A program made the translations under genes and the position numbers. This document shows positions 4,201-61,179 of a stretch of DNA of 64,000 bases, one piece after another (the first letter of the stretch is position 1; the number at the start of each line of letters is the position of its first letter). The notes beneath the pieces were generated by a model. It worked only from the letters and a program-made list of their open reading frames with translations. It had not been told where the DNA came from and did no database searches. Source of the stretch: Enterobacteria phage ATK47; the sequence record NC_055708.1; one strand, 5' to 3'.

Positions 4201-4625
4201 TAGCTTAATCCTAATGCTTTACGACGTTTAAGAGCCTTTTTACGCTTACGCAAGCCTTTAACTTGGCCTGAAGGGTTAGCTTTTTTAGCTTTAACGACCT
4301 TACGAGCGATTTGTCTACGTTTTGCTTTAGAAAGACCAGTGGTTTGGAACGCGTTACGTTCACGAGTTTTACGGTCTTTAGTGCGGGTGACTTCACCACG
4401 AGAAGAAACATGTTTAACGATAAACTCATTTAACTGTTCTTCATTAATAATGGAAGCCATTGCAACAGCTAAATCCGTTTCAGTTTCAAGCATGTTCTCG
4501 ATAATAGTATTTATATCGTCAATATCGAGAGCAGAAGACAATGCATCGATTCGGCCCTGTGCTTCAGGAATAAGTGCTTCGACATTTTCGAGTACCAATT
4601 CATAAGATTCAGGGATAAGATACAT
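4200..4625 (-). CDS. 68: prohead core protein gp68
   Basis: 141 aa, same length and position as T4 gp68. Confidence 0.8.
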
Positions 4626-4864
4626 TATTCATCGTCCTCATCATCTTCGTCTTCGTCGTCATCGCCTTCATCAGCGTCGTCTTCCGAAGCTTTAGCTTTC
4701 TTTTCTTCTTCTTCAGGTTCTTCGCCTTCAATCAAAAATTGAGAAGCGATTTCTGCTTTGCGTGCTTCAATCAAACGAACCGCTTTTTCTGCCATTGCAC
4801 TTTCAAAAAACTTTCGAGTAGCAACGAGGTCGTTTGATTTAATAGCTTGAATTAAATCGTCCAT
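4625..4864 (-). CDS. 67: prohead core protein gp67
   Basis: 79 aa with poly-acidic C-terminus ([15 protein letters not shown]); position as T4 gp67. Confidence 0.8.
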
Positions 4865-6435
4865 TAAAAATCCTCTTGTTCTTGGTCGGGGTCTTGGAAA
4901 CGAGCCTCTTTCGACTCTTCTTCAATTTGCTTAGCCTCTTGTTCAATTTCCTCGTCAGACATCTGAAGAATATCTTTCATAGCTGTTCTGTGAGAAATAT
5001 ATTTACCAATAAATGGTTCGGCCATCTGAAGCATATTAATGCGACGCTCCAGAATCTCAGCATCCTTTAATTCCGAGAAATAACTATCCCGATGAAATTT
5101 TATCTTAATATTATTTATTTCATCATTCCACTCATCTTCTGTAATAATTCCTTTAAGAATTAAATTAGTTTTAAGCGGGTCTAGGAATATCTCTTCAAAT
5201 TTATGTTGCAGCTCACGAATAAATTTACCAAATGACAATTCATCTCGTGTAATAGAAGTACCAGCATCAAACTGTATACCACCTTGGTCACTTGGAATAC
5301 GGGTAATAGGAATACGTAAAGCCATATAAAGCGCATTACGGAACCAACGTACATCTTCCATATTTCCAGTATTATCTGCACCTGGTAATGTGTCAACTTC
5401 TGTTACTGCTTTACCATCACGTCGTTGTAACCAATAATCTTCGGTCATCGACATAATATGCTGCTGGTTTTTAATCTTGCCTGTAGTAGCATCATATGCA
5501 ATACGGTTTTTCATCGTATTCATAACATGCTGCATATGTTCTGCTGCTTTTCTTGAAGGCATATTACCTGTATCAACGTACCATACACGACGATCGGGAG
5601 CACGAGTAATACGATAAATTACGACGGCATCTTCAAGAAGTTTTAATTGGTTCGCCGGCTTAATAGCCCGATGCAAATAACCGATGATATTTTTACCACA
5701 ACAATCAACTAAACCAGAATGGGCATAAACAATCGCGGCTTTAGGGATTTTTATTTTTGTGCCAGCTTCATATATGCGGCCATCACAAGCATAAGATTCG
5801 TGTGATGTGTCATAAATGAAATATTCTTTATAACCCTTGACTATTTTAACACCGGCTTCAGTGGTTGTAATAACTTCACGGACATATTGAACTTGACGTG
5901 GGTCTAAACGACGAAGCTCTTTAATACCTTCTTTAGGGCGTTTAGGGTCAATAATTTTATGGAAGAAAATTCGAGAATCTACATACCAACGCCTAAAATG
6001 GTCTGAACCTTTACGTTGGAAAGATAAATGATTCAACACTTCGTTAAATTCATCCAACATCATTGATTTTATATTTGGACTAAATTTTGTGTTGTCTAAA
6101 TTTATAGAAACGACTTCTGTGTCATCTTCATATACGATAGCATCAGAAACTATTTCAGAGACTGCATTATCCACTTCATAGTTCGTCATCAAATTTCTAT
6201 ACGTATCGATTAATTCACGCGTTGATTTGAGCCCTGGTTCTTGGCTACCGAACATTCTCTGAAACATAGCATTATATGTTTGCTGTGCTTCATTTTCAGA
6301 TACTTCGTATTCTTTAGCACCGTCGTCTAATTTTGGTGAGGTGATCGATTCTAAATTTTCTTTTTCTTGGTCTTTGTAATCACGTTCGTCCATTTTTGCC
6401 CATGGAGCAAACAAACTTAAGATATTAAATTTCAT
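4864..6435 (-). CDS. 20: portal vertex protein gp20
   Basis: 523 aa; size and synteny as T4 gp20. Confidence 0.9.
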
Positions 6436-7123: not shown

Positions 7124-9106
7124 TTAACCACCTACAGCACCAATCAGTTCGTCGAAATCGGCACCAGTTGCTGTTGCTACAAAGTTCAACGTAATATAAT
7201 TTATCGAGCGGGCAGGTTGTAAGTAGAAAGTAGCTACAAATTCATTACGGTCGATAACTGCTGGGGTGTTATTGGTAGTATCACAAACAACTTTAAAGTT
7301 ATATACACCACCGAGAGCTTTAATACCCTGTAGATATTGAGAAGTCTCTGTACGGAAAGAAGAACGGGTAAATGCGTTGTTCAATTCAAACAGGCGATAT
7401 TTAGATGCTGAACCAATGTTCGTTTTAACCATATTGAACAAACGACGAACGTTAATACGGTCAAATGGTGAAGGAACGGAAGTGGCAGTTTTATCACCAT
7501 ACAGAACATATCCGTCACCGCCGGTGCCAGTAACAGGGTTAATAGCTTCCTGATACAAACGATCACGTTGTGGTTGACGAGTTTCAATTGCAAGCTTAAT
7601 AACGTTAAGAATTTGTCCACGGTTATAACCGGCCGGAGACATCCAAGGTTGAGAAATATTGTCTGTGCGAGCACAAAGACCTGCAATATCAGCAGCTAAC
7701 GGAACCCAACGATTCACGTCATTATATTTGTCATATTGATATTTATAGTTACCGTCAATAGCAGCATAAGTAGAACTTACATTAAAGTTATTATCAGTGT
7801 AAGTTCCTGATGCAGTACGCCAATCAACCAGATTATCAACTGCACGATTAACAGGAATACCGACTATAGTTGAACGTGGTGGTGAGCAAAGAACCAAGCA
7901 ATCTTGGCGAGAATCACCAATTGCTACAACATGTTTCTGAACCGTGGAAGCAACTTCTAAAGATTCACCTGCACAAGAACCGGCAATAAACAACTGCGCA
8001 TTAACAGATTCGCGGTCAGCAAACAAATCCCAAGCTTCCATTAAATCACCAGCGTCAACCGTTTCATTAGATGATAAGCCACCACTCAGTTTGATTACGC
8101 CAGAGAAACCTTTTGGCCAACCTTGTGCAGTAGCGAAAATATAATTGCTTGCGCCTTTAGCAAAGAAATCATCAATAAAGATATTACTACCATAAATATC
8201 GCGTTCACCACGTTTAGTAGAAAGAACTACACTCTGGACTACAGCATCGTTACGACGAACGATAATTGCATATTGGTCATCTGTTTGTGGGCCATACCCA
8301 AAGATTGCTTTAGCCGTAGATGCACGAGTACCACCATCAGGATAAATTTTTAACTGGGCTGAAGCACCTTTGTCATAGTCTGCTTTAGATACGATTTCAA
8401 TTTCGAGCTGGTCCCCAAGTTCACCAGGATAAAGAGCAACTACGCCTGGGACACCATATTTTTTAATAGATTCTTGGAAAGTTACAGAAGTAATAGCTTC
8501 TTCAGAAGTTTCAACTTCAGTTAACAGAATACCAGAATCAGTTACGATAGAACCAATTGTAATAACGCCAGAGAGCCCAGAAGAAGAACTGGCTACTTCG
8601 GCGGTCCAGTTAGAACCCAATGCCGGATATTCATTAATTTCTTTTGCACGAGCAATAATTTTACCGGTTGGGATATAAATGTTAAGAATTTTACCATCGA
8701 CATCAACTGAAGTTACATAACCATCTGCTTCAACAGTTTCAGTCAAATACTTAACGATAATTTTATCACCAACCGCATAGTTACTACCAGCAGCAGAGAT
8801 TGTGAATTCAATATTGCCTGCTACAGGAGATGAGTTCTTAGCAGTATCACGATCAACTGCGCGTACAACACGAAGGTCATTACCATATTGAAGGAAGTTC
8901 ATAGCAGACATGAAATAATCTGCTGTATCTGTATTAGGAGTACCAAACATATCAACCAATGCAACTTCATCAGTGATTTGTTTAATCTGGAATGCAGGTC
9001 CCCATTGGAATTTTCCAGCCAGGGCAGCAGTACCAGTGGAGTTATTAACTACAGTACTCTGTACGGTAGTTTCTTTGAGCTCAACGCCCGGAGAGAGAAG
9101 TGCCAT
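7124..9106 (-). CDS. 18: contractile tail sheath protein gp18
   Basis: 660 aa; size and synteny as T4 gp18. Confidence 0.9.
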   Translation of the reverse strand: MALLSPGVELKETTVQSTVVNNSTGTAALAGKFQWGPAFQIKQITDEVALVDMFGTPNTDTADYFMSAMNFLQYGNDLRVVRAVDRDTAKNSSPVAGNIEFTISAAGSNYAVGDKIIVKYLTETVEADGYVTSVDVDGKILNIYIPTGKIIARAKEINEYPALGSNWTAEVASSSSGLSGVITIGSIVTDSGILLTEVETSEEAITSVTFQESIKKYGVPGVVALYPGELGDQLEIEIVSKADYDKGASAQLKIYPDGGTRASTAKAIFGYGPQTDDQYAIIVRRNDAVVQSVVLSTKRGERDIYGSNIFIDDFFAKGASNYIFATAQGWPKGFSGVIKLSGGLSSNETVDAGDLMEAWDLFADRESVNAQLFIAGSCAGESLEVASTVQKHVVAIGDSRQDCLVLCSPPRSTIVGIPVNRAVDNLVDWRTASGTYTDNNFNVSSTYAAIDGNYKYQYDKYNDVNRWVPLAADIAGLCARTDNISQPWMSPAGYNRGQILNVIKLAIETRQPQRDRLYQEAINPVTGTGGDGYVLYGDKTATSVPSPFDRINVRRLFNMVKTNIGSASKYRLFELNNAFTRSSFRTETSQYLQGIKALGGVYNFKVVCDTTNNTPAVIDRNEFVATFYLQPARSINYITLNFVATATGADFDELIGAVGG

Positions 9107-9133
9107 TTTAATTCCTCTTAATTTGCTTTATTT

Positions 9134-11450
<2,317 letters not shown>

Positions 11451-15507: not shown

Positions 15508-17090
15508 TATTTTACCTTAATGATATAGTTTAAAGAAATGTTCCATGGGCGTGTTTCATTTCCAATTAATTCAGGACGATTTAATGTATATTTGGAATTT
15601 CGTTGTGATGCCGGGTCAATTTCATATCCGTCATTGGTGAAGTATGAACGGTTATCCCAGTCAAGTCCTTTACGTGTACCAACAAAATTTGATCTACGGG
15701 TATTACCGAATGCTCCAGAATCATCATGCTCACCAAATCCGCCAGCGTGTTTATGATAAGACATCTGTTGTTTCTGTACTTCACCAACATATCCACCAGT
15801 ACAACCTACACCTAATCTAGGCTTACCAAACTGGTCATTACCATTAACATTTGGATTTGTTAAGTGAGAGCCACGACCTGAGCCACGAACAAATAATCCA
15901 CGCATATCAGGCAAGCCTGGGTTAGAAGAACTACCACCATATCGTGTCCCAATTCTGGAAGCATATACCGGACATTCTGAAGCAGAAACGGTCCCACCAT
16001 GACAGAAGCGCCAGTCAGAACTCGGTAAACTATCTGCAGCCCACATTGTAATAGCGCCAACTGGAAGAATTCGGTCTAATTCATTTTGAGTCACAATACG
16101 ATTGCCTTGAATATAACCACCGGACATATTGACATTGCCCGTTATATTAGCGCCGCCAGAACCAACCGTCAACGTATTATTAATGCGAAGTGTGCCGTTA
16201 ATAGTTTGTCCGCCTCGTTGGTGGATAACATCAGCATTCCAAGCAAGAGCAGAAGAACCATCACCACCTGATTGGCTACCCGCTTGTGTAGTTAAACGAA
16301 CAACTCCACGTAAAGAAGTTGTAGCCCCACGCCCGTTTAATGTTGCGCCGGTCACTACAACTGAAGAGTTGTTACTATTTACTTCAGTCTGTGTCCCTAG
16401 TTTAACGACGCCTTTATTAGTTTCTGATGCTACTGAATTCATAAAGGTATAAGGTGAAATTGCATAGCCTTCACGCAGGGTGCCTTGTTGTGCTTGAGCA
16501 ACTGTAGCCAAACGAACAACACCGGTAATAGATTCGGTGGCGTCACTATTATTTGGAGCAATTTGTGAAATAAGTTTAATTGCTAATTGTTGCGTTTTTA
16601 ACGGAGTCATTGCCGTTGTATCGTCAGAACCAGCTAATGCCGCAGCAGAAGTTGAAATTTTAATTACACCATTTGTTGCTTCTGTTGACACTTTTGTCTG
16701 AAATACATTGTCTATTTTTTGATTCAATTTAAGCGGAGTAATTGATGCATCGTCAATAGTTCCGGTTACTGCTTCATCTTCAGTAGCATAACGAGTTAAG
16801 CCGTATTGAGTTTCGGTTGCATTAGGATATTGTAGACGAGCATTCAGTGATGCCGGAGTAACAGCTTTATTATTATCTAATCCATCAATAACTTCTTGTG
16901 GAGTAGCTATTTGAATAATTCCTGGTGTAGTAGTTGTTGCTTCCGGTACACCATTAACACCTGAAGGAGAAATAGCAGCTAATGCGGCTTGGACATTAGT
17001 GACTGTATCTGGAAAATTCGTCCCCGTAGGGTCGAATTCAACGTAAATGGATTCGTTTGAAACGTGTTGGTATGTATTGTTATTACTCAT
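15507..17090 (-). CDS. 12: short tail fibre protein gp12
   Basis: 527 aa, identical length and position to T4 gp12. Confidence 0.88.
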
Positions 17091-17746
17091 GAGGCTCTCA
17101 CAAAGTGGTAGAAAACGGTAGGAGTATCATGGTTATCAAGAGTAACCGTTTGGGCACCCAATAAATTCCATGTTCCGTATCCGGATTTTGCTTCAGACAA
17201 AATTTCTTGCGAAATTGTTACACCAAACGAAGCATATGTTGGCAACACATGACGTTGGTTATCTAAATATGTCACCTGAAGTTTATTACCTTCAGTTGGA
17301 TGGTCTTTATAAGAAGAAATAGCGATTTGATTAGCAATGGCCTCTTGTAAAGCTATACGAACTTGTGCCGTTAATTCGTTATCAGTCATACCGATTGTTG
17401 CTTTAACGGCAAGTCCAAATACGTTAATAACGACCGGCGTTCCAGTGTCCAAAGTATCGTCGAGAACATCACCGGAAAAAGTCCAATAATCAACTTGTGC
17501 TGCACCTTCAGGCGATACGCCTGAAGTGTTTGTGACAACAGTACCAATATCAGCTCGTGCCATATTATGGACATCATTTATTGCAGATTCTACGTTAGCA
17601 TCATAAAAACCGCGAGCTAACTGAGAAATAGTCACGGAACCTACAGCTTGGTTGTTTAAAACATCGATTTGAGCTGGATTTTTTCTGTAATTCAAAAAAT
17701 CAGCATGACGGGAAATAACTCCCGCCTTTGTATTAAGTACAGTCAT
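17087..17746 (-). CDS. 11: baseplate wedge protein gp11
   Basis: Start set at internal [13 protein letters not shown] (T4 gp11 begins MSLLNNKAGVISR); 219 aa. Confidence 0.88.
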
Positions 17747-19551
17747 TATGCAATCCTTACCCAACGGTATACAGTTATAGATGGCTGAATATTAGTTATA
17801 GAACGTGCTGGAACATGAGATCCATTAGTCTTTGCATGGTCTTCACGATATTTAGTGTAAATAGGACCTTCTGCATCTGGGTCATATTGACAACCGCCTA
17901 TAATTACTGTACCATTATCATCAGAAATAAGAACCTTTTCATCGGTTTGTGTAGCTGGTAAATCAGCATTTTCTAATGTGATAGTTGTTACACCAACGGT
18001 ACCACCTGCGGTATGAGTAGGGTTACCATTGATGTCAAGGTCATTATTATTTAATGCAAAATTAGGATCCGATGCGTCATCATTCCAACCGGCTAATACT
18101 TTGCCTTGTCCCCAAATTTTCCACGAACCAAAACCTAAATAAGTGGCCGGATTATTAGGGTTAACCGCATTTTCGTAAATAGTCCCGACAGGATAAATTG
18201 TATCAAATATTGCTGAGATAGTCGAGAATTCACGTTCATACTTAGGAACAGGTTCTACATTAGGCCATCCAATTTTATCGAAATCGGTTAATGCAACGTC
18301 ACCAGTAATTTCAATGTTAGACCCTTGAGAAACATATTTCTCATCAGCGACATCAAGGATTTCTTCCATTTCAAGAAGAGTTCCTAAATCGTTATTAAAC
18401 CATGTGATGGTAATAATGTCTTGGTCTTCAAATTGACGGTCAAACAGAATTGCGCTAGGGATATTATCAGTGTATTCGATAGCATAATCTGTATACGATT
18501 GAGTCCATGTCCCGCCGAGATTAGCGCATGACTCTTCAGAATCAGCATCCACACCTTCACAACGGAAAATAGGAGTTCCAACAGTACCAGCTAATTCTTG
18601 GAGAATACCATTGAAGCGAACTTCTAATGAATTCGGGTTAGGTGGTTCTGTAGGATTAATACCAAATGCTGTAAATGGAATAGACCTGAACGTACTCAAA
18701 TCAGTGACGTAAATACTTCCGTCAATAGACTTTTTAGCAGTCAATTTACTATCTAAAATGCGAACTTGGCGACGAGTATATGAACTACGCCACTGAGAAA
18801 CACCATCTAGGAATGTCTCAATTTGTACAGTATCCCCAACATTACATGGTTGGCGTAATCTAATATTAAATCCATCAAGTGCAACCAGTTCACCAGGATT
18901 AGCGCCCGGAGAACCAAAATCACTATTATCACTGAATACATCGCCATAATACAATTCGTTGCCACGATGTTTTACTCGAATGTTGTTAACGTTATAAGAG
19001 GTCCCGTTAAAAACATCCATGAAATCGGTCTGACCTTGGGTTTCAACCAGATATTCTCTACGAGCAACATTACTAATGTCAGAGCTAACTATTTTATCAA
19101 TTTGTTTGTTCTTGATGTATTCCCAACGTCCAGGAGCACAATAAACTAATTCTAAATCAGAGAACTGAACGTTAATTTCTACCGGAGATGAAGAACCTTT
19201 AATCGTGTCTCCGTTTGCCGGAATTAAAGTAACAGGGTTAATGTTCCAAGTTGCAAATACATCACGAGCACGAATAACTTTATTATAGTCTGCAATTGTC
19301 CCTTTAGGAAGATTTACCGAAACTCGCCCAGAAGTAGTATTAATTGCATAAGATTTACCCCAAGCGGCCTTAAGATTAAGACCATCAGCCGCATCATAAG
19401 TCTTCCATGCGCCAGCGGCATAAGGAACTTCACCATCACCTAATTCATAATAGATTTCGTCAAAGTTCTCATTTATCTTTTCACCACCTCGACGAAGGTA
19501 ATCGCCTTGTCCGTCATCAACGACGTTACCAATTTTAATATTTTGTTTCAT
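17746..19551 (-). CDS. 10: baseplate wedge protein gp10
   Basis: 601 aa; synteny with T4 gp10. Confidence 0.85.
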
Positions 19552-53257: not shown

Positions 53258-53731
53258 ATGATTATCAATGAAAACTCTTGGCACTTTAAAATTTATGCCG
53301 CGTTCAATAGTACATGGAATCGTCCGAAAACGTTGTGTGCTTATTTTTGGAAAACGTTAATCCCGGTATTGGCTGTTTCAATTATTGGATTTGCGATTTT
53401 AGCAGCAGTCACAATCATTGGCCAGGAAATTTTAACTAAATTCTTTGTTTTTAGCAGTCTATGGACATTAGTTCCAGCCTCAATTGGTGTAGGCATTTTA
53501 ATTGTAGCAGTCATGGCTTTTATTGCTACCGGGTTAGTAATTGGTCCGTCTTGGTTGTTAGACAAATATAACGACAGAAAATATTATAAAGAAATTGAGC
53601 TCATTGCGCAAAACCAAGAACGAATTAAAAATGGACTTGAGCCTATTGAACGTAAGAAATCATTAATAGGTGAATACCTTAAAGCTCGTAAAGAAAAAGT
53701 CTGTCCTACTCTTGAATATAAGGCTAAATGA
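53258..53731 (+). CDS. polytopic membrane protein (157 aa)
   Basis: Three to four hydrophobic helices; SD AAGGAA. Confidence 0.6.
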   Translation: MIINENSWHFKIYAAFNSTWNRPKTLCAYFWKTLIPVLAVSIIGFAILAAVTIIGQEILTKFFVFSSLWTLVPASIGVGILIVAVMAFIATGLVIGPSWLLDKYNDRKYYKEIELIAQNQERIKNGLEPIERKKSLIGEYLKARKEKVCPTLEYKAK

Positions 53732-55089: not shown

Positions 55090-55127
55090 AGACCTATCGA
55101 AACGAAATGAGTAAATTGGAGAATAAA

Positions 55128-56108
55128 ATGTTCAACGTTCAAATCAAAAAAGGTATCTATCGTAATAACGAAATCTCTGGTTCTTATGTTGCCACAAAGA
55201 CATGGTTCCCGGCAAAGCTTAATCCTGAATGTTCCCACTTAGGTGATGGTAAAATTTTCGTTATGATTGATGGTTCTGAACGTGGAGTATGGGTCTTCAA
55301 ATCAGACATCGTAATGGAAGGAGTTGAGACGTCACCAGTTGCAGTTGTTGAAAGCACTGAAGATATGAAAACTCGTATCAACAAACGCTTTAAAGTAATG
55401 AACATGATGACGAATGGCATTATTGATGGCAAAATTCGTTCACTCATTATTTCAGGTGCAGCTGGTATTGGTAAGACGTATTCTCTGGATAAAGCACTTA
55501 ATAATGCTAATGATAATGGTTTCATCAAATACAAAAGCATTAATGGTAAAATCTCCGGTATTGGCCTTTACGAACAACTTTGGCTCAACCGTGATGAAGA
55601 CAGCGTTCTCTTAATCGATGACGTTGACGTATTCTCAGATATGGACATCCTGAACCTTCTTAAAGCAGCATTAGATACCGGAGATAAACGCAAAGTTTGT
55701 TGGAGCACTGCGTCATCTTATCTCGAGGATAAGGGTATTGATAAAGAATTTGAGTTTGAAGGTACTATCGTTTTCATTACAAACGTTGATATCGATAAAG
55801 AGTTAGAACGGGGTTCGAAACTTGCTCCACACCTTCAAGCTTTAGTATCTCGTTCAGTGTATCTCGACCTTGGAGTACACTCTAATGAAGAGATTATGGT
55901 TCGAGTTGAAGATGTAATATTATCTACTGATATGATGCAGAAACGTGGCTTGACTGATGCTGAAACGTATAAAGCATTGTCCTGGATGAAGGCTAATGTA
56001 TCTCGTCTTCGCAATGTATCATTACGTACGGCTCTTTATGTAGCAGATTTTATTTCAACCGATAAAGATGGTTGGGAGGAAATCTCCGAAGTAACTTTAC
56101 TGAAATAA
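55128..56108 (+). CDS. AAA+ family ATPase (326 aa)
   Basis: Walker A ISGAAGIGKT, Walker B VLLIDDVD, sensor-like FITN; start at ATG 55128 with SD GGAGA. Confidence 0.7.
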   Translation: MFNVQIKKGIYRNNEISGSYVATKTWFPAKLNPECSHLGDGKIFVMIDGSERGVWVFKSDIVMEGVETSPVAVVESTEDMKTRINKRFKVMNMMTNGIIDGKIRSLIISGAAGIGKTYSLDKALNNANDNGFIKYKSINGKISGIGLYEQLWLNRDEDSVLLIDDVDVFSDMDILNLLKAALDTGDKRKVCWSTASSYLEDKGIDKEFEFEGTIVFITNVDIDKELERGSKLAPHLQALVSRSVYLDLGVHSNEEIMVRVEDVILSTDMMQKRGLTDAETYKALSWMKANVSRLRNVSLRTALYVADFISTDKDGWEEISEVTLLK

Positions 56109-56123
56109 GCTTATAGGAAGTTC

Positions 56124-56167
56124 TGAGGTAACAAAAGCCATAAAGATGAATAATCATATGGCTTACC
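56124..56167 (+). other. long imperfect hairpin in intergenic region
   Basis: GAGGTAA/TTACCTC plus GCCATA/TATGGC arms (13 bp with 5-nt bulge) around 13-nt loop. Confidence 0.4.
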
Positions 56168-56245
56168 TCAAAGAAGGACACCAGGAACCTACTGAGGGCA
56201 TAGAAATATTTAAAATAATGATGTACAAATCAAAGAGGATATGTT

Positions 56246-56533
56246 ATGGATTTTATGCAAAAAATTAAAGCCGCAGTCGAACTCTATGCTCATCGTATGG
56301 TTAGTTCTACGATGCAATATAGCGAGGAGGTTCGCCAGGACTCTTCCTTGAAAGGAAAAACTAAAGCCTTAATTACCTTAGATCGTTTGCAAAAGAATGC
56401 CATAGAGATGCTCCAGTACGACAAGGGTGTATATAAGAAAGAACAGGAAGAGAAACTTAAATCTGAAAAATTACAAAAAATCCCGAAGTCGGTTTGGTTC
56501 AGTGGAAAAAATACCGAAAAAAGTTTCTTTTAG
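56246..56533 (+). CDS. hypothetical protein (95 aa)
   Basis: SD AGAGGA. Confidence 0.55.
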   Translation: MDFMQKIKAAVELYAHRMVSSTMQYSEEVRQDSSLKGKTKALITLDRLQKNAIEMLQYDKGVYKKEQEEKLKSEKLQKIPKSVWFSGKNTEKSFF

Positions 56534-56535
56534 TT

Positions 56536-56564
56536 GTTTACAAGGTCTATGGTTATGTTATTAT
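56536..56564 (+). promoter_or_regulatory. T4-type early promoter within palindrome
   Basis: GTTTAC, 17 nt, TG-t-TATTAT; GGTCTAT...ATAGACC inverted repeat. Confidence 0.6.
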
Positions 56565-56591
56565 AGACCTATCAACTACTGGAGGTAAAAC

Positions 56592-57119
56592 ATGAACGCT
56601 AAAGATATTTTCAACCTGGTAAATTATAACGACGGTAAATTTAAATCTGAAGCACAAAGCAAGTTCTTTAATGACGTTGCTTATGGTAACGAGATTACCG
56701 TAGATGGAGGTCAGATTTTCAAATCTCGCTGGAATTGGATTGTTATCATCGATTCAGTTGGAATTGTGGAAGTCTACAAAAACACTAACAAAAACCGTAC
56801 ATTATTCTGGTCTCGTGAAACTAACGAGCAGTACAAAAAGGATAAAGCATCTCGTTTATCCAAAGTAACCCAGGAAGATATCGAGTTTATTAAGAAAGAT
56901 ATCGAGATGTACGAAAATTTAATCGCTGAAGACCAGGCAGTACTCGATAAGTTTGATGAAATTAAAGCTTCTCGTGAAATCCCTGACTTCATGAAAGAAA
57001 CAGTAAACGAACGATACGCTCTCACTTCAGAACGTATTGCAAACTATACAAAACAGAAAGCAGAACGTATTAGTACTCTTCGGAAATTTGAAGAACGTTT
57101 AAAGACGGTTCACGCATAA
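56592..57119 (+). CDS. hypothetical protein (175 aa)
   Basis: SD GGAGGT. Confidence 0.6.
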   Translation: MNAKDIFNLVNYNDGKFKSEAQSKFFNDVAYGNEITVDGGQIFKSRWNWIVIIDSVGIVEVYKNTNKNRTLFWSRETNEQYKKDKASRLSKVTQEDIEFIKKDIEMYENLIAEDQAVLDKFDEIKASREIPDFMKETVNERYALTSERIANYTKQKAERISTLRKFEERLKTVHA

Positions 57120-57120
57120 A

Positions 57121-57146
57121 CGCTTTACCCAAGGACGGGTTATAAT
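57121..57146 (+). promoter_or_regulatory. candidate middle (MotA-box-like) promoter
   Basis: CGCTTTA (resembles MotA box TGCTTtA) 13 nt upstream of TATAAT (57141-57146). Confidence 0.35.
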
Positions 57147-57181
57147 GGTTTTGAGTTCCAATTCAATCTGAGGAAATAGTT

Positions 57182-58177
57182 ATGAGCATTACATCTGATG
57201 CGATAAAACATGAAATTAACGGTTTATGTGCTTCACAGATTAAAGTGTGGTTTAAAGACCATAATGATCGCAGAGCGCTTAATTATGAACGAATTGCTAT
57301 CCAAGTTCATCAATTACTGGTTAGTAAATTTGATTTTCATATGCCGTCTGAAATCTATACTAATCTACCGCGAGCGCTTATTAAAGCGTGTAAAGGCTAC
57401 GGAAAATCAATGGCTGACGGAATCTTCAGCGCGCTGAATAAACTTAACGTTCTGTCGATGATTAACTCTAACAATATCCTGCGTAATCTAGGACGTACTG
57501 ATTTGTTCGGTCGTGAACAGTGTAAAATGCCTTTGAAACGGATTGTTGCTCATCTTAACGAGAACCAAACACGTTTTATGGCCGTAACAGCACGTTTACA
57601 AATGGGCCTAGATCGTCAGATGAACTTTAAAACTCATCCACGTTATTCAGGTTCAACAGACTTTTATAAATGTGAGCTTCAAAAGGTTGGTGGTAAAACT
57701 GTCTTAGTAGTTCGTGTAACGTTTGAAGGACGACGTCAAGGATATTTTGACATAATCGGCTCTGGTCTTAAACATTGTGGATTTATCGACGAAGTTGATA
57801 TCAAGCGAGACGGCATTGGATACCGTATTGGGTATGTTTGTACTCTTAAAGAAGAGATTTCAGGACCAGCTCCAGGACTAAAAGACGTTAGATATAAAGA
57901 CGAGCTCGTTGAAGAAATAAAAGAAGTTGAATATGATATCAACCAAGAAGATGCTCTTAAAGACCTTATTGATGAACTGAACCAAGATGTTATTCCTGTT
58001 CAGAAATTTGAATCAAAACATGCTGAGCAAATCAAATACTTTGAAGCTTTGATTAACGAACTTAATGTAACTATTCAACAGACTGACGATGAAATCTCAC
58101 GATTAGCAGGCTTAAACGGTAAAAATAAAACAGAACGAGCTAATCTTATTCAAGTAGTAAAACTTCTTAAGGAATGA
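57182..58177 (+). CDS. hypothetical protein (331 aa) with C-terminal coiled coil; array member 1
   Basis: SD GAGGAAA; last about 60 aa heptad-rich. Confidence 0.65.
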   Translation: MSITSDAIKHEINGLCASQIKVWFKDHNDRRALNYERIAIQVHQLLVSKFDFHMPSEIYTNLPRALIKACKGYGKSMADGIFSALNKLNVLSMINSNNILRNLGRTDLFGREQCKMPLKRIVAHLNENQTRFMAVTARLQMGLDRQMNFKTHPRYSGSTDFYKCELQKVGGKTVLVVRVTFEGRRQGYFDIIGSGLKHCGFIDEVDIKRDGIGYRIGYVCTLKEEISGPAPGLKDVRYKDELVEEIKEVEYDINQEDALKDLIDELNQDVIPVQKFESKHAEQIKYFEALINELNVTIQQTDDEISRLAGLNGKNKTERANLIQVVKLLKE

Positions 58178-58206
58178 TGTACAACCAAGGATGGTTGGAG
58201 TATAAT
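58177..58206 (+). promoter_or_regulatory. early promoter (ATGTAC, 18 nt, TATAAT)
   Basis: Shares 24-nt core ACAACCAAGGAYGGTTGGAGTATAAT with promoter at 59197. Confidence 0.6.
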
Positions 58207-58232
58207 AAATTTTTCAACATGAGGAATATAAA

Positions 58233-59192
58233 ATGGCTTTTATTACACGTAGAGAACTTATCAAAGAATTTACCTCGAACGCATATACTCCAGGACCTAA
58301 TCCTATCCGTATGCCTGTAAAGACTCCTGAAGAGATTGAGGAAATCTGTTCATATTATGGGATTACTTCTCGTATGTTTACCCAATTTGAATGCGTTACT
58401 AACACACCCGTTAAAGAGTTCATTAAAAATGGTGAGTTCAGCCGTTTATTGGCCAAACAGAAACTTCGTAATTTTTGTATTGGCGGTGAAGGTCAATATT
58501 TCGCTAAGCAGTTCCGGAATAACCTTAACAATCTGATGGCCATTGCTTCTCGTATTCGTCCTCAAGCAATTAACATGAAACATTTGAAATATACTTACGA
58601 TAAGTTAGAAATCATGGTTATCAGTGAGAACGAGTTCACTCTTACGTATAAACCTAAGAATGATAACGTTGCTCGTGTATTCCACCAAGCGTTGGAAGTT
58701 TTAGGTGATAATATCCACCAGATTAAAGCAATTTATTCTCGTGAGCTTAATATTATCGACCCTATCAAGAATAAGGGCCATATCGCTATCCAGGCTCGTG
58801 TATCTATTGGTAAAAAGGTTCCTGCACCATGGTGGCACAAAGACTCTGAATATTATCAAAATCTTAAAAAGGAAAATGCAACATTTGAAGCGTCAATTAC
58901 TGCAACCCCAATTGGTAATGCTGAAGTTCTAGGTTCATATTCTACTTCGGGTAAATCAATGTTTAAAGGTTTGCCAAATGTGTGCAAACTGTCTGCAGTA
59001 AAACTAAATGTTTCTAATGACCTTCTTCCGGTCGAAGATTACCATTACAATCAAATCAAGGCCACTATGGACCAACTGTCTGTTGAACTTGACAAAGCAC
59101 AAGCTAAGCTTCGTGATGCTCAAAGTGTTGTAACGAATCTCCAGTTGCAGTACTCTAAACTTTTTAACGCAATGAATGCATTAAAATCATAA
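58233..59192 (+). CDS. hypothetical protein (319 aa) with C-terminal coiled coil; array member 2
   Basis: SD GAGGAA; C-terminal heptad-rich tail. Confidence 0.65.
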   Translation: MAFITRRELIKEFTSNAYTPGPNPIRMPVKTPEEIEEICSYYGITSRMFTQFECVTNTPVKEFIKNGEFSRLLAKQKLRNFCIGGEGQYFAKQFRNNLNNLMAIASRIRPQAINMKHLKYTYDKLEIMVISENEFTLTYKPKNDNVARVFHQALEVLGDNIHQIKAIYSRELNIIDPIKNKGHIAIQARVSIGKKVPAPWWHKDSEYYQNLKKENATFEASITATPIGNAEVLGSYSTSGKSMFKGLPNVCKLSAVKLNVSNDLLPVEDYHYNQIKATMDQLSVELDKAQAKLRDAQSVVTNLQLQYSKLFNAMNALKS

Positions 59193-59196
59193 AACG

Positions 59197-59226
59197 GTTT
59201 ACAACCAAGGACGGTTGGAGTATAAT
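59197..59226 (+). promoter_or_regulatory. early promoter (GTTTAC, 18 nt, TATAAT)
   Basis: Same conserved core as promoter at 58177. Confidence 0.6.
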
Positions 59227-59254
59227 GAATCTATCTTAACGAGAGGAAAATATT

Positions 59255-60205
59255 ATGACACGTTCACATTACATTGAATACTTTGCCGGGCTTATCGCTA
59301 ACGTTCATGCTCAGCGCGCTACTGGTGCACTAGGATTTGATGTTCCACACCGAGATGTAGTAAGTGGTATTCTTCGCGATTTTGGTACATACACAGGCCA
59401 AGAAAATCATATCTGTAAAGATACTCAAAATGCATATTCTCATTCATTAGGGACGCTGCTTCAATGGTTCAAACGTTCTCGTTTATTATCTTCTACTGTA
59501 GCTCGCGATAACATTAAAAACTTTATGAAGCCGAGCTTTATTAAATCTGTGACATCTAAAACCGATTTGGTTGAATTCACTATTGTTAATGATGTTAAAA
59601 AGACTCATTTGGCTGATTGGTTATCTACCATTCCTGAAACTAAATTTGCTGATAAATTTGCTTGTGAATTCAATAACCAAGTGAATATGCTTTTTAAACA
59701 TTCTCGTAAATTATTCACGGGCGGTGATGGTCGTACAAATAAAGTTCATGTTAAAGATTGGGTTACTGCAGTATTCAAACCGACCGGTAATGGTAACGCA
59801 TCATTATCAATTGATATCCAGGTTCCTTATTACTACTCACGTAATCTCGGTACCATGAAAGCCGAAGAAATTAATAAGCACAACAAAACCGTTCGTTCAT
59901 TGTCTTATAAACTTATTACATTGTTAGAGACTATGGATGTTGTTGAAACGTTCGACGAATCCGAAGATAACGGTTCAATGTTATACAGTTCTCGTACCAG
60001 AATTAAGCTGAAGAACCCTAACGAGTATAAACTTAAGACTATTAAAGAACCTAAAGTAGAAAAAGTTGACAACTTGAGCGAAGAACGTGAATACCTCAAA
60101 TCTCGTCTGAAAGAAGTCGAAGCCCAGATTAAAGAACAAACTAAATCGTTAAAAGCTCTTAATGCGAAAGCGGATGGTTTACGAAATGCCATTGAGGTTT
60201 TATAA
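59255..60205 (+). CDS. hypothetical protein (316 aa) with C-terminal coiled coil; array member 3
   Basis: SD GAGGAAA; C-terminal EEREYLKSRLKEVEAQIKEQTKSLKALNAKADGLRNAIEVL. Confidence 0.65.
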   Translation: MTRSHYIEYFAGLIANVHAQRATGALGFDVPHRDVVSGILRDFGTYTGQENHICKDTQNAYSHSLGTLLQWFKRSRLLSSTVARDNIKNFMKPSFIKSVTSKTDLVEFTIVNDVKKTHLADWLSTIPETKFADKFACEFNNQVNMLFKHSRKLFTGGDGRTNKVHVKDWVTAVFKPTGNGNASLSIDIQVPYYYSRNLGTMKAEEINKHNKTVRSLSYKLITLLETMDVVETFDESEDNGSMLYSSRTRIKLKNPNEYKLKTIKEPKVEKVDNLSEEREYLKSRLKEVEAQIKEQTKSLKALNAKADGLRNAIEVL

Positions 60206-60510
60206 TGAAACTACGTCTTTTAGAGGATATTGATATGAACACTAATCACAGCTTGGTTAAGTTTATTGACGATAGTTCAAAGATTGAATTTGTTCAGCGA
60301 GATAAAATCCACGGTGAAGAAGAGTTCGTTCCTCCAGCATGGAACGAAATCATGAAAATGGTTGAACGACGTGAAAATGCTGCCAAATCGGCAGCAAAAC
60401 ACCCATGTCCGGAATGTGGAACTATCCAAGTCCAACTGGTTAACTGGACCACTGATAACTTGAAATTGAAATGCCGTAAATGCTTCCACAATTTTGAGAG
60501 AACATTATAA
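60205..60510 (+). CDS. zinc-ribbon protein (101 aa)
   Basis: C-terminal CPECG-x(17)-CRKC four-Cys motif. Confidence 0.6.
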   Translation: MKLRLLEDIDMNTNHSLVKFIDDSSKIEFVQRDKIHGEEEFVPPAWNEIMKMVERRENAAKSAAKHPCPECGTIQVQLVNWTTDNLKLKCRKCFHNFERTL

Positions 60511-60923
60511 TGAGATATAGCCTTCGTTGTTTTATCGCAGCTTTAGTTTTTGCTATTATTCCATTCATTTGGAACAGCCAGAATACTTACATGGAAACTA
60601 AAGTAATTCCTGTGGAGGTAGTGGAATTAATCTCAGGACAATCTACAGGAAAATATTCTAAATTGGAATTTATTGCAGTCTATAAAGATGAGCAAGGACG
60701 AGTTTTTGACAGGCGTGTATCGCCATCGTTTTATACGCTTCTGAATAAAGGTGATACGATAGCTATAGAAATTCGTGAGATGGATATCAAACAAACTACT
60801 AAAGATAACTTGATTTGGTTCTTTGGTACAGTGTTGTTGGTTTCTATCTGTATCACAGGTTTTATTACATGTATTGTATTTGGCGTTGCATATTTAATCG
60901 ATGAAAGGAAAAATAATGTTTAA
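60510..60923 (+). CDS. membrane protein (137 aa)
   Basis: N- and C-terminal hydrophobic helices. Confidence 0.55.
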   Translation: MRYSLRCFIAALVFAIIPFIWNSQNTYMETKVIPVEVVELISGQSTGKYSKLEFIAVYKDEQGRVFDRRVSPSFYTLLNKGDTIAIEIREMDIKQTTKDNLIWFFGTVLLVSICITGFITCIVFGVAYLIDERKNNV

Positions 60924-61179
60924 AGTGTACGGGTACGACTCTACTATTCATAAATGCATTTATTGCGATAATGCGAAACGATTGCTGACTGTTAAGAAAC
61001 AGCCATTCGAATTCATTAATGTTATGCCGGAAAAAGGTGTTTTTGATGATGAGAAAATTGCTGAGCTTCTGGCTAAGCTTGGACGTGAAACACATGTTGG
61101 ATTGACGATGCCTCAGGTGTTTGCTCCTGACGGAAGTCACATTGGTGGATTTGACCAACTACGAGAATATTTTAAATGA
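60916..61179 (+). CDS. nrdC: glutaredoxin (NrdC)
   Basis: MFKVYGYDSTIHKCIYCDNAKRLL; near-identical to recalled T4 NrdC; CxxC active site. Confidence 0.95.
   Translation: MFKVYGYDSTIHKCIYCDNAKRLLTVKKQPFEFINVMPEKGVFDDEKIAELLAKLGRETHVGLTMPQVFAPDGSHIGGFDQLREYFK

Follow-up and report, generated by a model that had tools for sequence, protein, structure and literature searches.

An array of diverged nrdC.6, nrdC.5 and nrdC.3 paralogs with hairpin-bearing promoters, and a candidate counter-defense role, in an RB69-type phage

We analyzed 64,000 nucleotides (nt) of Enterobacteria phage ATK47 (sequence record NC_055708.1), a stretch called the window throughout, and within it an array of three consecutive genes, here named A, B and C. 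A first-pass annotation, made from the letters alone, had listed three open reading frames (ORFs) of 331, 319 and 316 amino acids (aa) at this place. It had read them as a diversifying family of the kind seen in immunity or host-range modules, with a promoter in front of each gene and a shared heptad-rich tail at the C terminus. The three ORFs were found exactly where it had put them, all on the + strand:

57182-58177, + strand: gene A, 331 aa, NrdC.6 family, with a GAGG-type ribosome-binding site
58233-59192, + strand: gene B, 319 aa, NrdC.5 family (Pfam DUF7235), with a GAGG-type ribosome-binding site
59255-60205, + strand: gene C, 316 aa, NrdC.3 family, with a GAGG-type ribosome-binding site

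The array is flanked by homologs of T4 nrdC.8 and nrdC.2, and the thioredoxin gene nrdC lies farther downstream. This region of the window is 100% identical to Enterobacteria phage ATK48, a Mosigvirus (RB69-like). Taken as a whole, we consider it reasonably probable that the array is made of tandem RB69-type nrdC.6/.5/.3 paralogs with early or middle expression and a counter-defense job, and that gene turnover in it is driven by promoter cassettes.

Identity of the three genes

Gene A matched PHROG 2257 (E 2.6e-126), and its homologs bear PF26899. Its identity to the NrdC.6 proteins of T4, ACG-C40, VR20 and IME341 was 29-33% (BLASTP E 1e-18 to 2e-32), with 29% for T4 NrdC.6 alone. The gene is located after an nrdC.8 homolog, likewise in Dhakavirus and Gaprivervirus; full-length similarity together with the matching genomic position places it in the NrdC.6 family.

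Gene B scored 405.5 bits against the DUF7235 profile (cut-off 30), with residues 15-318 aligned to profile positions 1-307, a full-length match above the gathering score. T4 NrdC.5 reached 417.8 bits on the same model, while the two proteins are 25.6% identical to each other. Gene C was 56% identical to T4 NrdC.3 (E 3e-118) and matched PHROG 1435 (E 5.7e-102); its homologs bear PF26897. It stands directly upstream of an nrdC.2 homolog at 60205, as expected for a member of the NrdC.3 family.

Orthologs scattered over T4 as single-copy genes would speak against an array of related genes. The T4 orthologs were instead found side by side (nrdC.6, nrdC.5, nrdC.4 and nrdC.3, 275 to 340 aa), and therefore this objection does not hold. 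Genes A, B and C are the Mosigvirus (RB69-type) copies of T4 nrdC.6, nrdC.5 and nrdC.3.

All nrdC.x genes at 55107-61179 of the window are labeled "thioredoxin" in GenBank (KT184310 and many other records). This label is a propagated naming artefact, because only nrdC (60901-61179) is a thioredoxin.

Profile comparisons of the four families

The absence of obvious mutual identity among the three proteins was confirmed in pairwise BLASTP comparisons, where the best E values were 0.25, 1.8 and 3.7. We built family alignments from 20 loci in four genera and made profile-profile comparisons by hhalign, with the following results (percentage, E value, aligned columns):

nrdC.4 and nrdC.3: 97.9%, E 4e-13, 211 columns
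nrdC.5 and nrdC.4: 80.7%, E 1.3e-5, 243 columns
nrdC.5 and nrdC.3: 54.9%, E 1.2e-4, 129 columns
nrdC.6 and each single family: under 1%, E about 0.1, 22-107 columns

A further family was formed by a 324-aa protein of Klebsiella Jiaodavirus phages, which occupies the nrdC.3 position, directly upstream of an nrdC.2 homolog. In the profile comparison with nrdC.5 it reached 92.5% (E 4.8e-7). Genes B and C are thus connected through nrdC.4 and the Klebsiella-phage family over 130-240 columns of the head. In Klebsiella phage PKO111 (NC_031095), the 324-aa superfamily ORF (positions 16996-17970 of the locus, directly upstream of an nrdC.2-like gene) is unannotated in RefSeq. A 262-aa gene beside the Klebsiella-phage relative was rejected as a family member by profile comparison.

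For nrdC.6 we used a pooled profile of nrdC.3, nrdC.4, nrdC.5, the Klebsiella family and the Acinetobacter ZZ1 protein. Against this profile nrdC.6 reached 92.1% (E 6.1e-7), with 202 aligned columns that begin at residue 78 and run to the C terminus. Without the tails, the link was kept at 82% (E 1.1e-5), and after omission of any single family it was at 50-92%. The controls (two unrelated neighbor families, 30 column shuffles and a reversed profile) gave at most 0.8%, with E of at least 0.07. The motifs of the head domain are visible by eye: S-R-[LI]...I-L-x-N-[FY], followed by a helix N-x-R-R-[IL]-L...K-G-x-D-[RK].

Could the three genes be unrelated, with size, position and a convergent helical tail merely in common? 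Pairwise BLASTP finds nothing, hhalign of A against single families was not significant, and profile scores can be inflated by coiled coils, all of which would fit such an explanation. Still, we regard it as quite improbable. The pooled link of A survives removal of the tails, and none of the controls (unrelated families, column shuffles, reversed profile) reproduces it; the connection of B to C runs across the head columns; and Foldseek ties the A model, over its full length, to syntenic proteins of other genera. With similarity of the head domains above the controls, A, B and C belong to one superfamily: they are anciently diverged tandem paralogs of one T-even phage family, and the diversifying family proposed in the first pass finds support here. 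The NrdC.3 family of gene C is, as judged from these profiles, a paralog of T4 NrdC.4. The superfamily link among four separately filed families is new here, as a modest addition.

The superfamily profile and a tail profile both found exactly three members in the 64-kb window, with the next ORF at E 0.04-0.19. A word-indexed protein search with A alone gave four near-identical matches; the same type of search with a mixed B/C alignment gave NrdC.3 and close relatives of B only, and did not return NrdC.4 or T4-type NrdC.5. An exhaustive HMMER search of 1.84 billion representatives produced nine matches. Apart from a single spurious eukaryotic protein of low complexity, all were proteins of T-even phages or fragments, and therefore the families are narrow at the sequence level. 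No match was found in an NCBIfam search.

Predicted structure and the C-terminal tail

The AlphaFold model of gene A was usable (predicted local distance difference test, pLDDT, 72). The predicted parts of the proteins are as follows:

Gene A, residues 1-141: helical N-domain (AlphaFold)
Gene A, residues 162-222: small strand-strand-helix-strand-strand domain (AlphaFold)
Gene A, residues 226-277: disordered acidic linker (AlphaFold)
Gene A, residues 281-307 and 313-330: two helices of a C-terminal helical hairpin (AlphaFold)
Gene B, residues 266-318: C-terminal helix (confident part of the AlphaFold model)
Gene C, about residues 268-316: C-terminal heptad tail

When the A model was searched against BFVD, the top matches were the NrdC.6 family. 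Uncharacterized proteins of 300-335 aa from T4-like phages of Enterobacter, Pectobacterium, Acinetobacter and Klebsiella matched over the full length with E from 5e-7 to 2e-5. A 326-aa Mineola protein (E 6.6e-6) has the length of the syntenic Mineola_080, which is located at the nrdC.3 position. A 308-aa Tequatrovirus protein (E 1e-3), judged by its length alone, is probably NrdC.3. The structure search of the same model against PDB gave nothing similar, and the weak PDB and Pfam matches were only to coiled-coil proteins.

In each of the three proteins, the best heptad windows fell within the last 50 residues, with z of 2.8-3.7 relative to shuffles, compared to -0.2 for an NrdC.10-like control. 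Heptad periodicity within a long helix is what a coiled coil requires, and together with the confident helices in the A and B models it upholds the heptad-rich tail described in the first pass. The tail is also shared, as had been claimed: all families, including the Klebsiella and Acinetobacter relatives, terminate in L-x-x-[AV]-[LIM]-x-x-L-[LK], at the C terminus or a few residues from it. In the best explanation, each protein would combine a conserved tail, predicted to form a coiled coil, with a flexible linker and a variable head made of a helical and a small alpha/beta domain. Such a tail would most likely make the protein oligomeric.

The NrdC.10-like protein (window 55107-56108) has a Walker A motif, GAAGIGKT, with weak matches to AAA/STAND NTPase models and to a helix-turn-helix (HTH) domain.

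Promoters and the spacer hairpin

A promoter was located in front of each of the three genes, as the first-pass annotation had claimed, with a hairpin in each promoter spacer:

57118-57153, + strand: gene A promoter, MotA-type middle layout, with a box (A)AACGCTTTA ending at 57127, a 13-nt spacer, -10 TATAAT at 57141-57146 and a start expected near 57153
57127-57140: gene A spacer hairpin, ACCC/AAGGAC/GGGT
58178-58206, + strand: gene B early promoter, -35 TGTACA, 17-nt spacer, -10 TATAAT (promoter scan)
58182-58197: gene B spacer hairpin, CAACC/AAGGAT/GGTTG, with GGAG at 58197-58200
59197-59226, + strand: gene C early promoter, -35 GTTTAC/TTTACA (TTTACA from 59198), 17-nt spacer, -10 TATAAT (promoter scan)
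59202-59217: gene C spacer hairpin, CAACC/AAGGAC/GGTTG, with GGAG at 59217-59220

The MotA box is defined as (a/t)(a/t)(a/t)TGCTTtA placed 12+/-1 bp before the -10 (PMC2988021). The gene A promoter reads AAACGCTTTA, 13 nt, TATAAT, and departs from the box at one position (C for T); the GCTTTA part, at 57122-57127, is located 13 nt ahead of TATAAT (57141-57146). The MotA-box-like element of the first pass thus fits the spacing rule. Besides, its T4 ortholog, PnrdC.7 (T4 locus positions 11331-11365), is a middle promoter mapped by experiment, with its start site at 53325. The layouts are best explained if B and C are transcribed from predicted sigma-70 early promoters and A from a predicted MotA-dependent middle promoter.

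A core of 24 nt had been described as common to the B and C promoters. The sharing was confirmed, while the core turned out to be 26 nt long (ACAACCAAGGAYGGTTGGAGTATAAT); it has exactly two copies in the 64 kb (58181-58206 and 59201-59226), with 0 expected. Overlooked in the first pass was the promoter of gene A, which carries the core CCAAGGAYGGKT at 57129-57140. This 12-mer is common to all three promoters, and its three exact matches in the window are all in these intergenic regions (0 expected).

The AAGGAY element was observed in the promoter spacer before nrdC.7/nrdC.6, nrdC.4 and nrdC.3 in four genera. The loop is invariant, while the stems differ yet stay complementary (ACCC/GGGT, CAACC/GGTTG, CATCC/GGATG, TATACC/GGTATA, AGCC/GGCT and CCAC/GTGG). 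A stem of at least 4 bp accompanied 65 of the 568 occurrences of AAGGAY (all loci, both strands), and all 65 were promoter sites, many of them orthologous copies. For 13 distinct hairpin sequences, 92.3% of the cells were paired, compared to 62.6 +/- 4.5% in shuffles, and none of 500 shuffles reached the observed value. The covariation score was 0.667, against 0.144 for shuffles and at most 0.159 for slid partners, where the hairpin structure was derived from the same sequences that entered the count. One pair position showed all four Watson-Crick types. Thermodynamically the hairpins are weak, from -5.5 to -8.3 kcal/mol, with z of -0.2 to -1.95.

The mapped start of T4 PnrdC.7 (53325) is 7 nt past the TATAAT that overlaps the hairpin. 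With the start downstream of the hairpin, the hairpin is therefore absent from the RNA of its own promoter, and it could form only in read-through RNA or in unwound DNA. A role as intrinsic terminator was rejected, as the hairpin lacks a U run and a search for + strand terminators at 57100-60200 came back empty. Behind the hairpin, the early-promoter versions carry GGAG, which is the core of the RegB nuclease site (PMC3014915) and a conceivable point of RegB cleavage.

In Mosigvirus contigs, the cassette CCAAGGAYGGNNGGAGTATAAT is also present in front of a second tandem array, located downstream of dexA (positions 1331-2866 of one and 62-620 of another). This array consists of 139-186 aa paralogs ending in ...WVEDG..L.N.V..G.F.VV.

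Gain, loss and decay of genes among relatives

Copy number among related phages, a check proposed in the first pass, ranged from one to four family genes:

T4-type phages: four genes, nrdC.6,.5,.4 and.3
Mosigvirus: three genes, 6, 5 and 3
Dhakavirus and Gaprivervirus: three genes, 6, 5 and 4
ACG-C40: one intact gene and remnants

In ACG-C40 (locus positions 4516-4924), what is left of nrdC.5 is 71 codons, joined to the final 72 codons of nrdC.3; a deletion has removed nrdC.4 entirely, together with the larger part of both nrdC.5 and nrdC.3. One Tequatrovirus has nrdC.4 in two pieces, ORFs of 193 aa and 158 aa (locus positions 8950-9982). Compared to ACG-C40 and other phages, T4 nrdC.6 itself (275 aa) carries a -1 frameshift that cuts the tail off, while the tail coding sequence (...LSSKAKSEREKLIKIVDLLKS) persists out of frame just before nrdC.5 (T4 locus positions 9997-10140). 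The reference T4 copy of nrdC.6 may be defective. The NrdC.6 of Shigella phage Sf25 is 378 aa long and contains an internal duplication of about 83 residues.

In tblastn searches, 150 phage records had A-type genes (at least 95% identity) and 131 had B-type genes (at least 80%), so part of the genus lacks B. For example, in Mosigvirus AV116 (OR352946) gene A is followed directly by gene C. At this junction (locus positions 2579-2635) the sequence left of the 26-nt core is that of the A-B intergenic region of ATK48, while the sequence right of the core is that of the B-C intergenic region. The junction is a clean hybrid of two cores, and thus B was lost or gained by recombination inside the repeated promoter core.

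The promoter cassettes would then be short repeats that allow deletion or insertion of whole genes, with the array changing its composition from phage to phage as a result. Genes A, B and C were already known, and so was this kind of plastic, arms-race locus. What is new, to a modest extent, is the hairpin-bearing promoter cassette with a base-precise example of deletion. It resolves to the single base how T-even genomes acquire and lose such genes, which bears on the prediction of host range for phage therapy.

Evidence for a counter-defense role

The functional evidence comes from T4. Srikant, Guegler and Laub (eLife 2022, PMC9391042) obtained T4 clones with compensatory deletions, and one clone lost infection of E. 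coli ECOR17. Deletion of dsr1 in ECOR17 restored infection by this clone, plasmid-borne dsr1 protected MG1655 from it, and T4 nrdC.5 alone, carried on a plasmid, restored its plating on dsr1+ MG1655 (PMC9391042). Dsr1 is a SIR2-domain protein thought to deplete NAD+. According to a 2026 preprint, its repeat-type sensor domain, common to Avs7, recognizes phage major capsid proteins (PMC12803255).

The T4 homolog of gene B thus overcomes Dsr1 of ECOR17 (PMC9391042), which supports the immunity or host-range idea of the first-pass annotation. The T4 nrdC.5 phenotype makes an array of diversifying anti-defense proteins the best reading of A, B and C. Counter-defense would most likely be the job of the paralogs, including, by analogy, those of the phage in the window; for A and C, paralogy and the evolutionary pattern are what suggests it. 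With a sensor that reportedly recognizes capsid protein, an inhibitor made early, which blocks the sensor before that protein is present, would make mechanistic sense for the NrdC.5 family and, in turn, for B.

In the mechanism that we propose, A, B and C would be switched on in the first minutes of infection. Each paralog would have its own host immune sensor to bind and silence, ahead of the appearance of late phage proteins, with T4 NrdC.5 playing this part against the SIR2 NADase Dsr1.

Since the tails of A, B and C have a similar heptad pattern and the common terminal motif L..A/V[LIM]..L[LK], and since the genes are adjacent and co-expressed, one could think of a single hetero-oligomer formed through the coiled-coil tails, with one function, rather than of independent inhibitors. 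In the plasmid experiment, however, T4 nrdC.5 by itself sufficed against Dsr1. Natural subsets also differ (A and C in AV116; 6, 5 and 4 in Dhakavirus; one intact copy in ACG-C40), and T4 NrdC.6 has lost its tail through the frameshift. We therefore give this arrangement little chance.

Another explanation accepts the paralogs as real and assigns them to host takeover or to nucleic-acid or nucleotide metabolism, the Dsr1 effect of T4 NrdC.5 being a side effect or a special case. The neighbors nrdC, nrdD, pin and the nucleotidyltransferase NrdC.11, which are genes of nucleotide metabolism and host takeover, would agree with it, as would the lack of anti-defense data for NrdC.3,.4 and.6 in the literature searched. 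On the other hand, the sole functional result for the family is the anti-Dsr1 effect, phages can do without the genes, in which deletions, splits and frameshifts are frequent, and A and B have diverged to an extreme degree between genera (22-33%), a pattern typical of arms-race rather than metabolic genes. We consider this explanation unlikely.

Several observations weigh against our explanation of the array as a whole. A literature search gave no published function, including no anti-defense data, for NrdC.3,.4 and.6. The target of B may differ from that of T4 NrdC.5, because their identity is only about 26%. The hhalign comparisons of nrdC.6 with single families were no better than with an unrelated control, and A is joined to the other families via the pooled profile alone. 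The AlphaFold model of gene B was poor overall (pLDDT 41), which leaves A as the only gene with a usable model, and our searches gave no solved structure or known domain hinting at a mechanism.

A bolder version of the counter-defense reading would treat the whole NrdC.3/.4/.5/.6 superfamily as modular immune-sensor inhibitors, with an oligomerizing tail and swappable heads directed at differing targets, possibly such as the Dsr1/Avs7-type domains that reportedly sense capsid protein. In this version the AAGGAY spacer hairpin would act as a nucleic-acid signal for processing, regulation or recombination and would mark out a mobile expression cassette for genes of this type. We offer it tentatively, as something that could hold but probably does not.

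T4 nrdC.5 is one of the few known phage escapes from the Dsr1 NADase. If nrdC.3/.4/.5/.6 are one family in which the tail is common and the heads vary, it adds three further gene families to the candidate inhibitors. These genes occur in hundreds of therapeutic-type coliphages. The family would also supply natural head swaps for mapping of specificity.

Comparison with known systems

The closest characterized relative is T4 NrdC.5. It is like B in its Pfam family (with a full-length match), in its position within the nrdC-mobD region, in being an early gene and in its C-terminal tail. The two proteins differ in sequence, with identity of only about 26%, and in control: B comes with an early promoter, whereas T4 nrdC.5, placed behind nrdC.6, has none to itself. 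The uncharacterized T4 genes nrdC.3, nrdC.4 and nrdC.6 (PF26897, PF26899) have the gene order and promoter cassettes of the array described here. Unlike T4, ATK48 is without nrdC.4 and nrdC.7. Gene A retains the coiled-coil tail that is lost in T4 NrdC.6, and it also has a 50-residue acidic linker insert.

DSAD1 is a Bacillus-phage inhibitor of DSR2. As a phage protein that blocks a SIR2 NADase defense by binding to the sensor region, it provides a working analogy only, its target being DSR2 and not Dsr1.

The promoter cassettes resemble the PeSLs, mobile regulatory cassettes of T4-type phages (Arbiol et al. 2010; Comeau et al. 2014; PMC2839356, PMC4122927). Common to both are a short conserved early-promoter motif with a stem-loop, location in a hyperplastic region, flanking of variable ORFs and a role as recombination points; at our locus we found early promoters in a hyperplastic region with variable ORFs, and in AV116 a recombination end point inside the motif. 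In PeSLs the stem-loop is located just upstream of the promoter (PMC4122927), whereas here it is inside the spacer, between the -35 (or the MotA box) and the -10. Unlike PeSLs, the cassette described here also has the invariant AAGGAY loop and exists in both early and middle promoter versions. So the element of the nrdC.6/.5/.3 array is a variant rather than a textbook PeSL.

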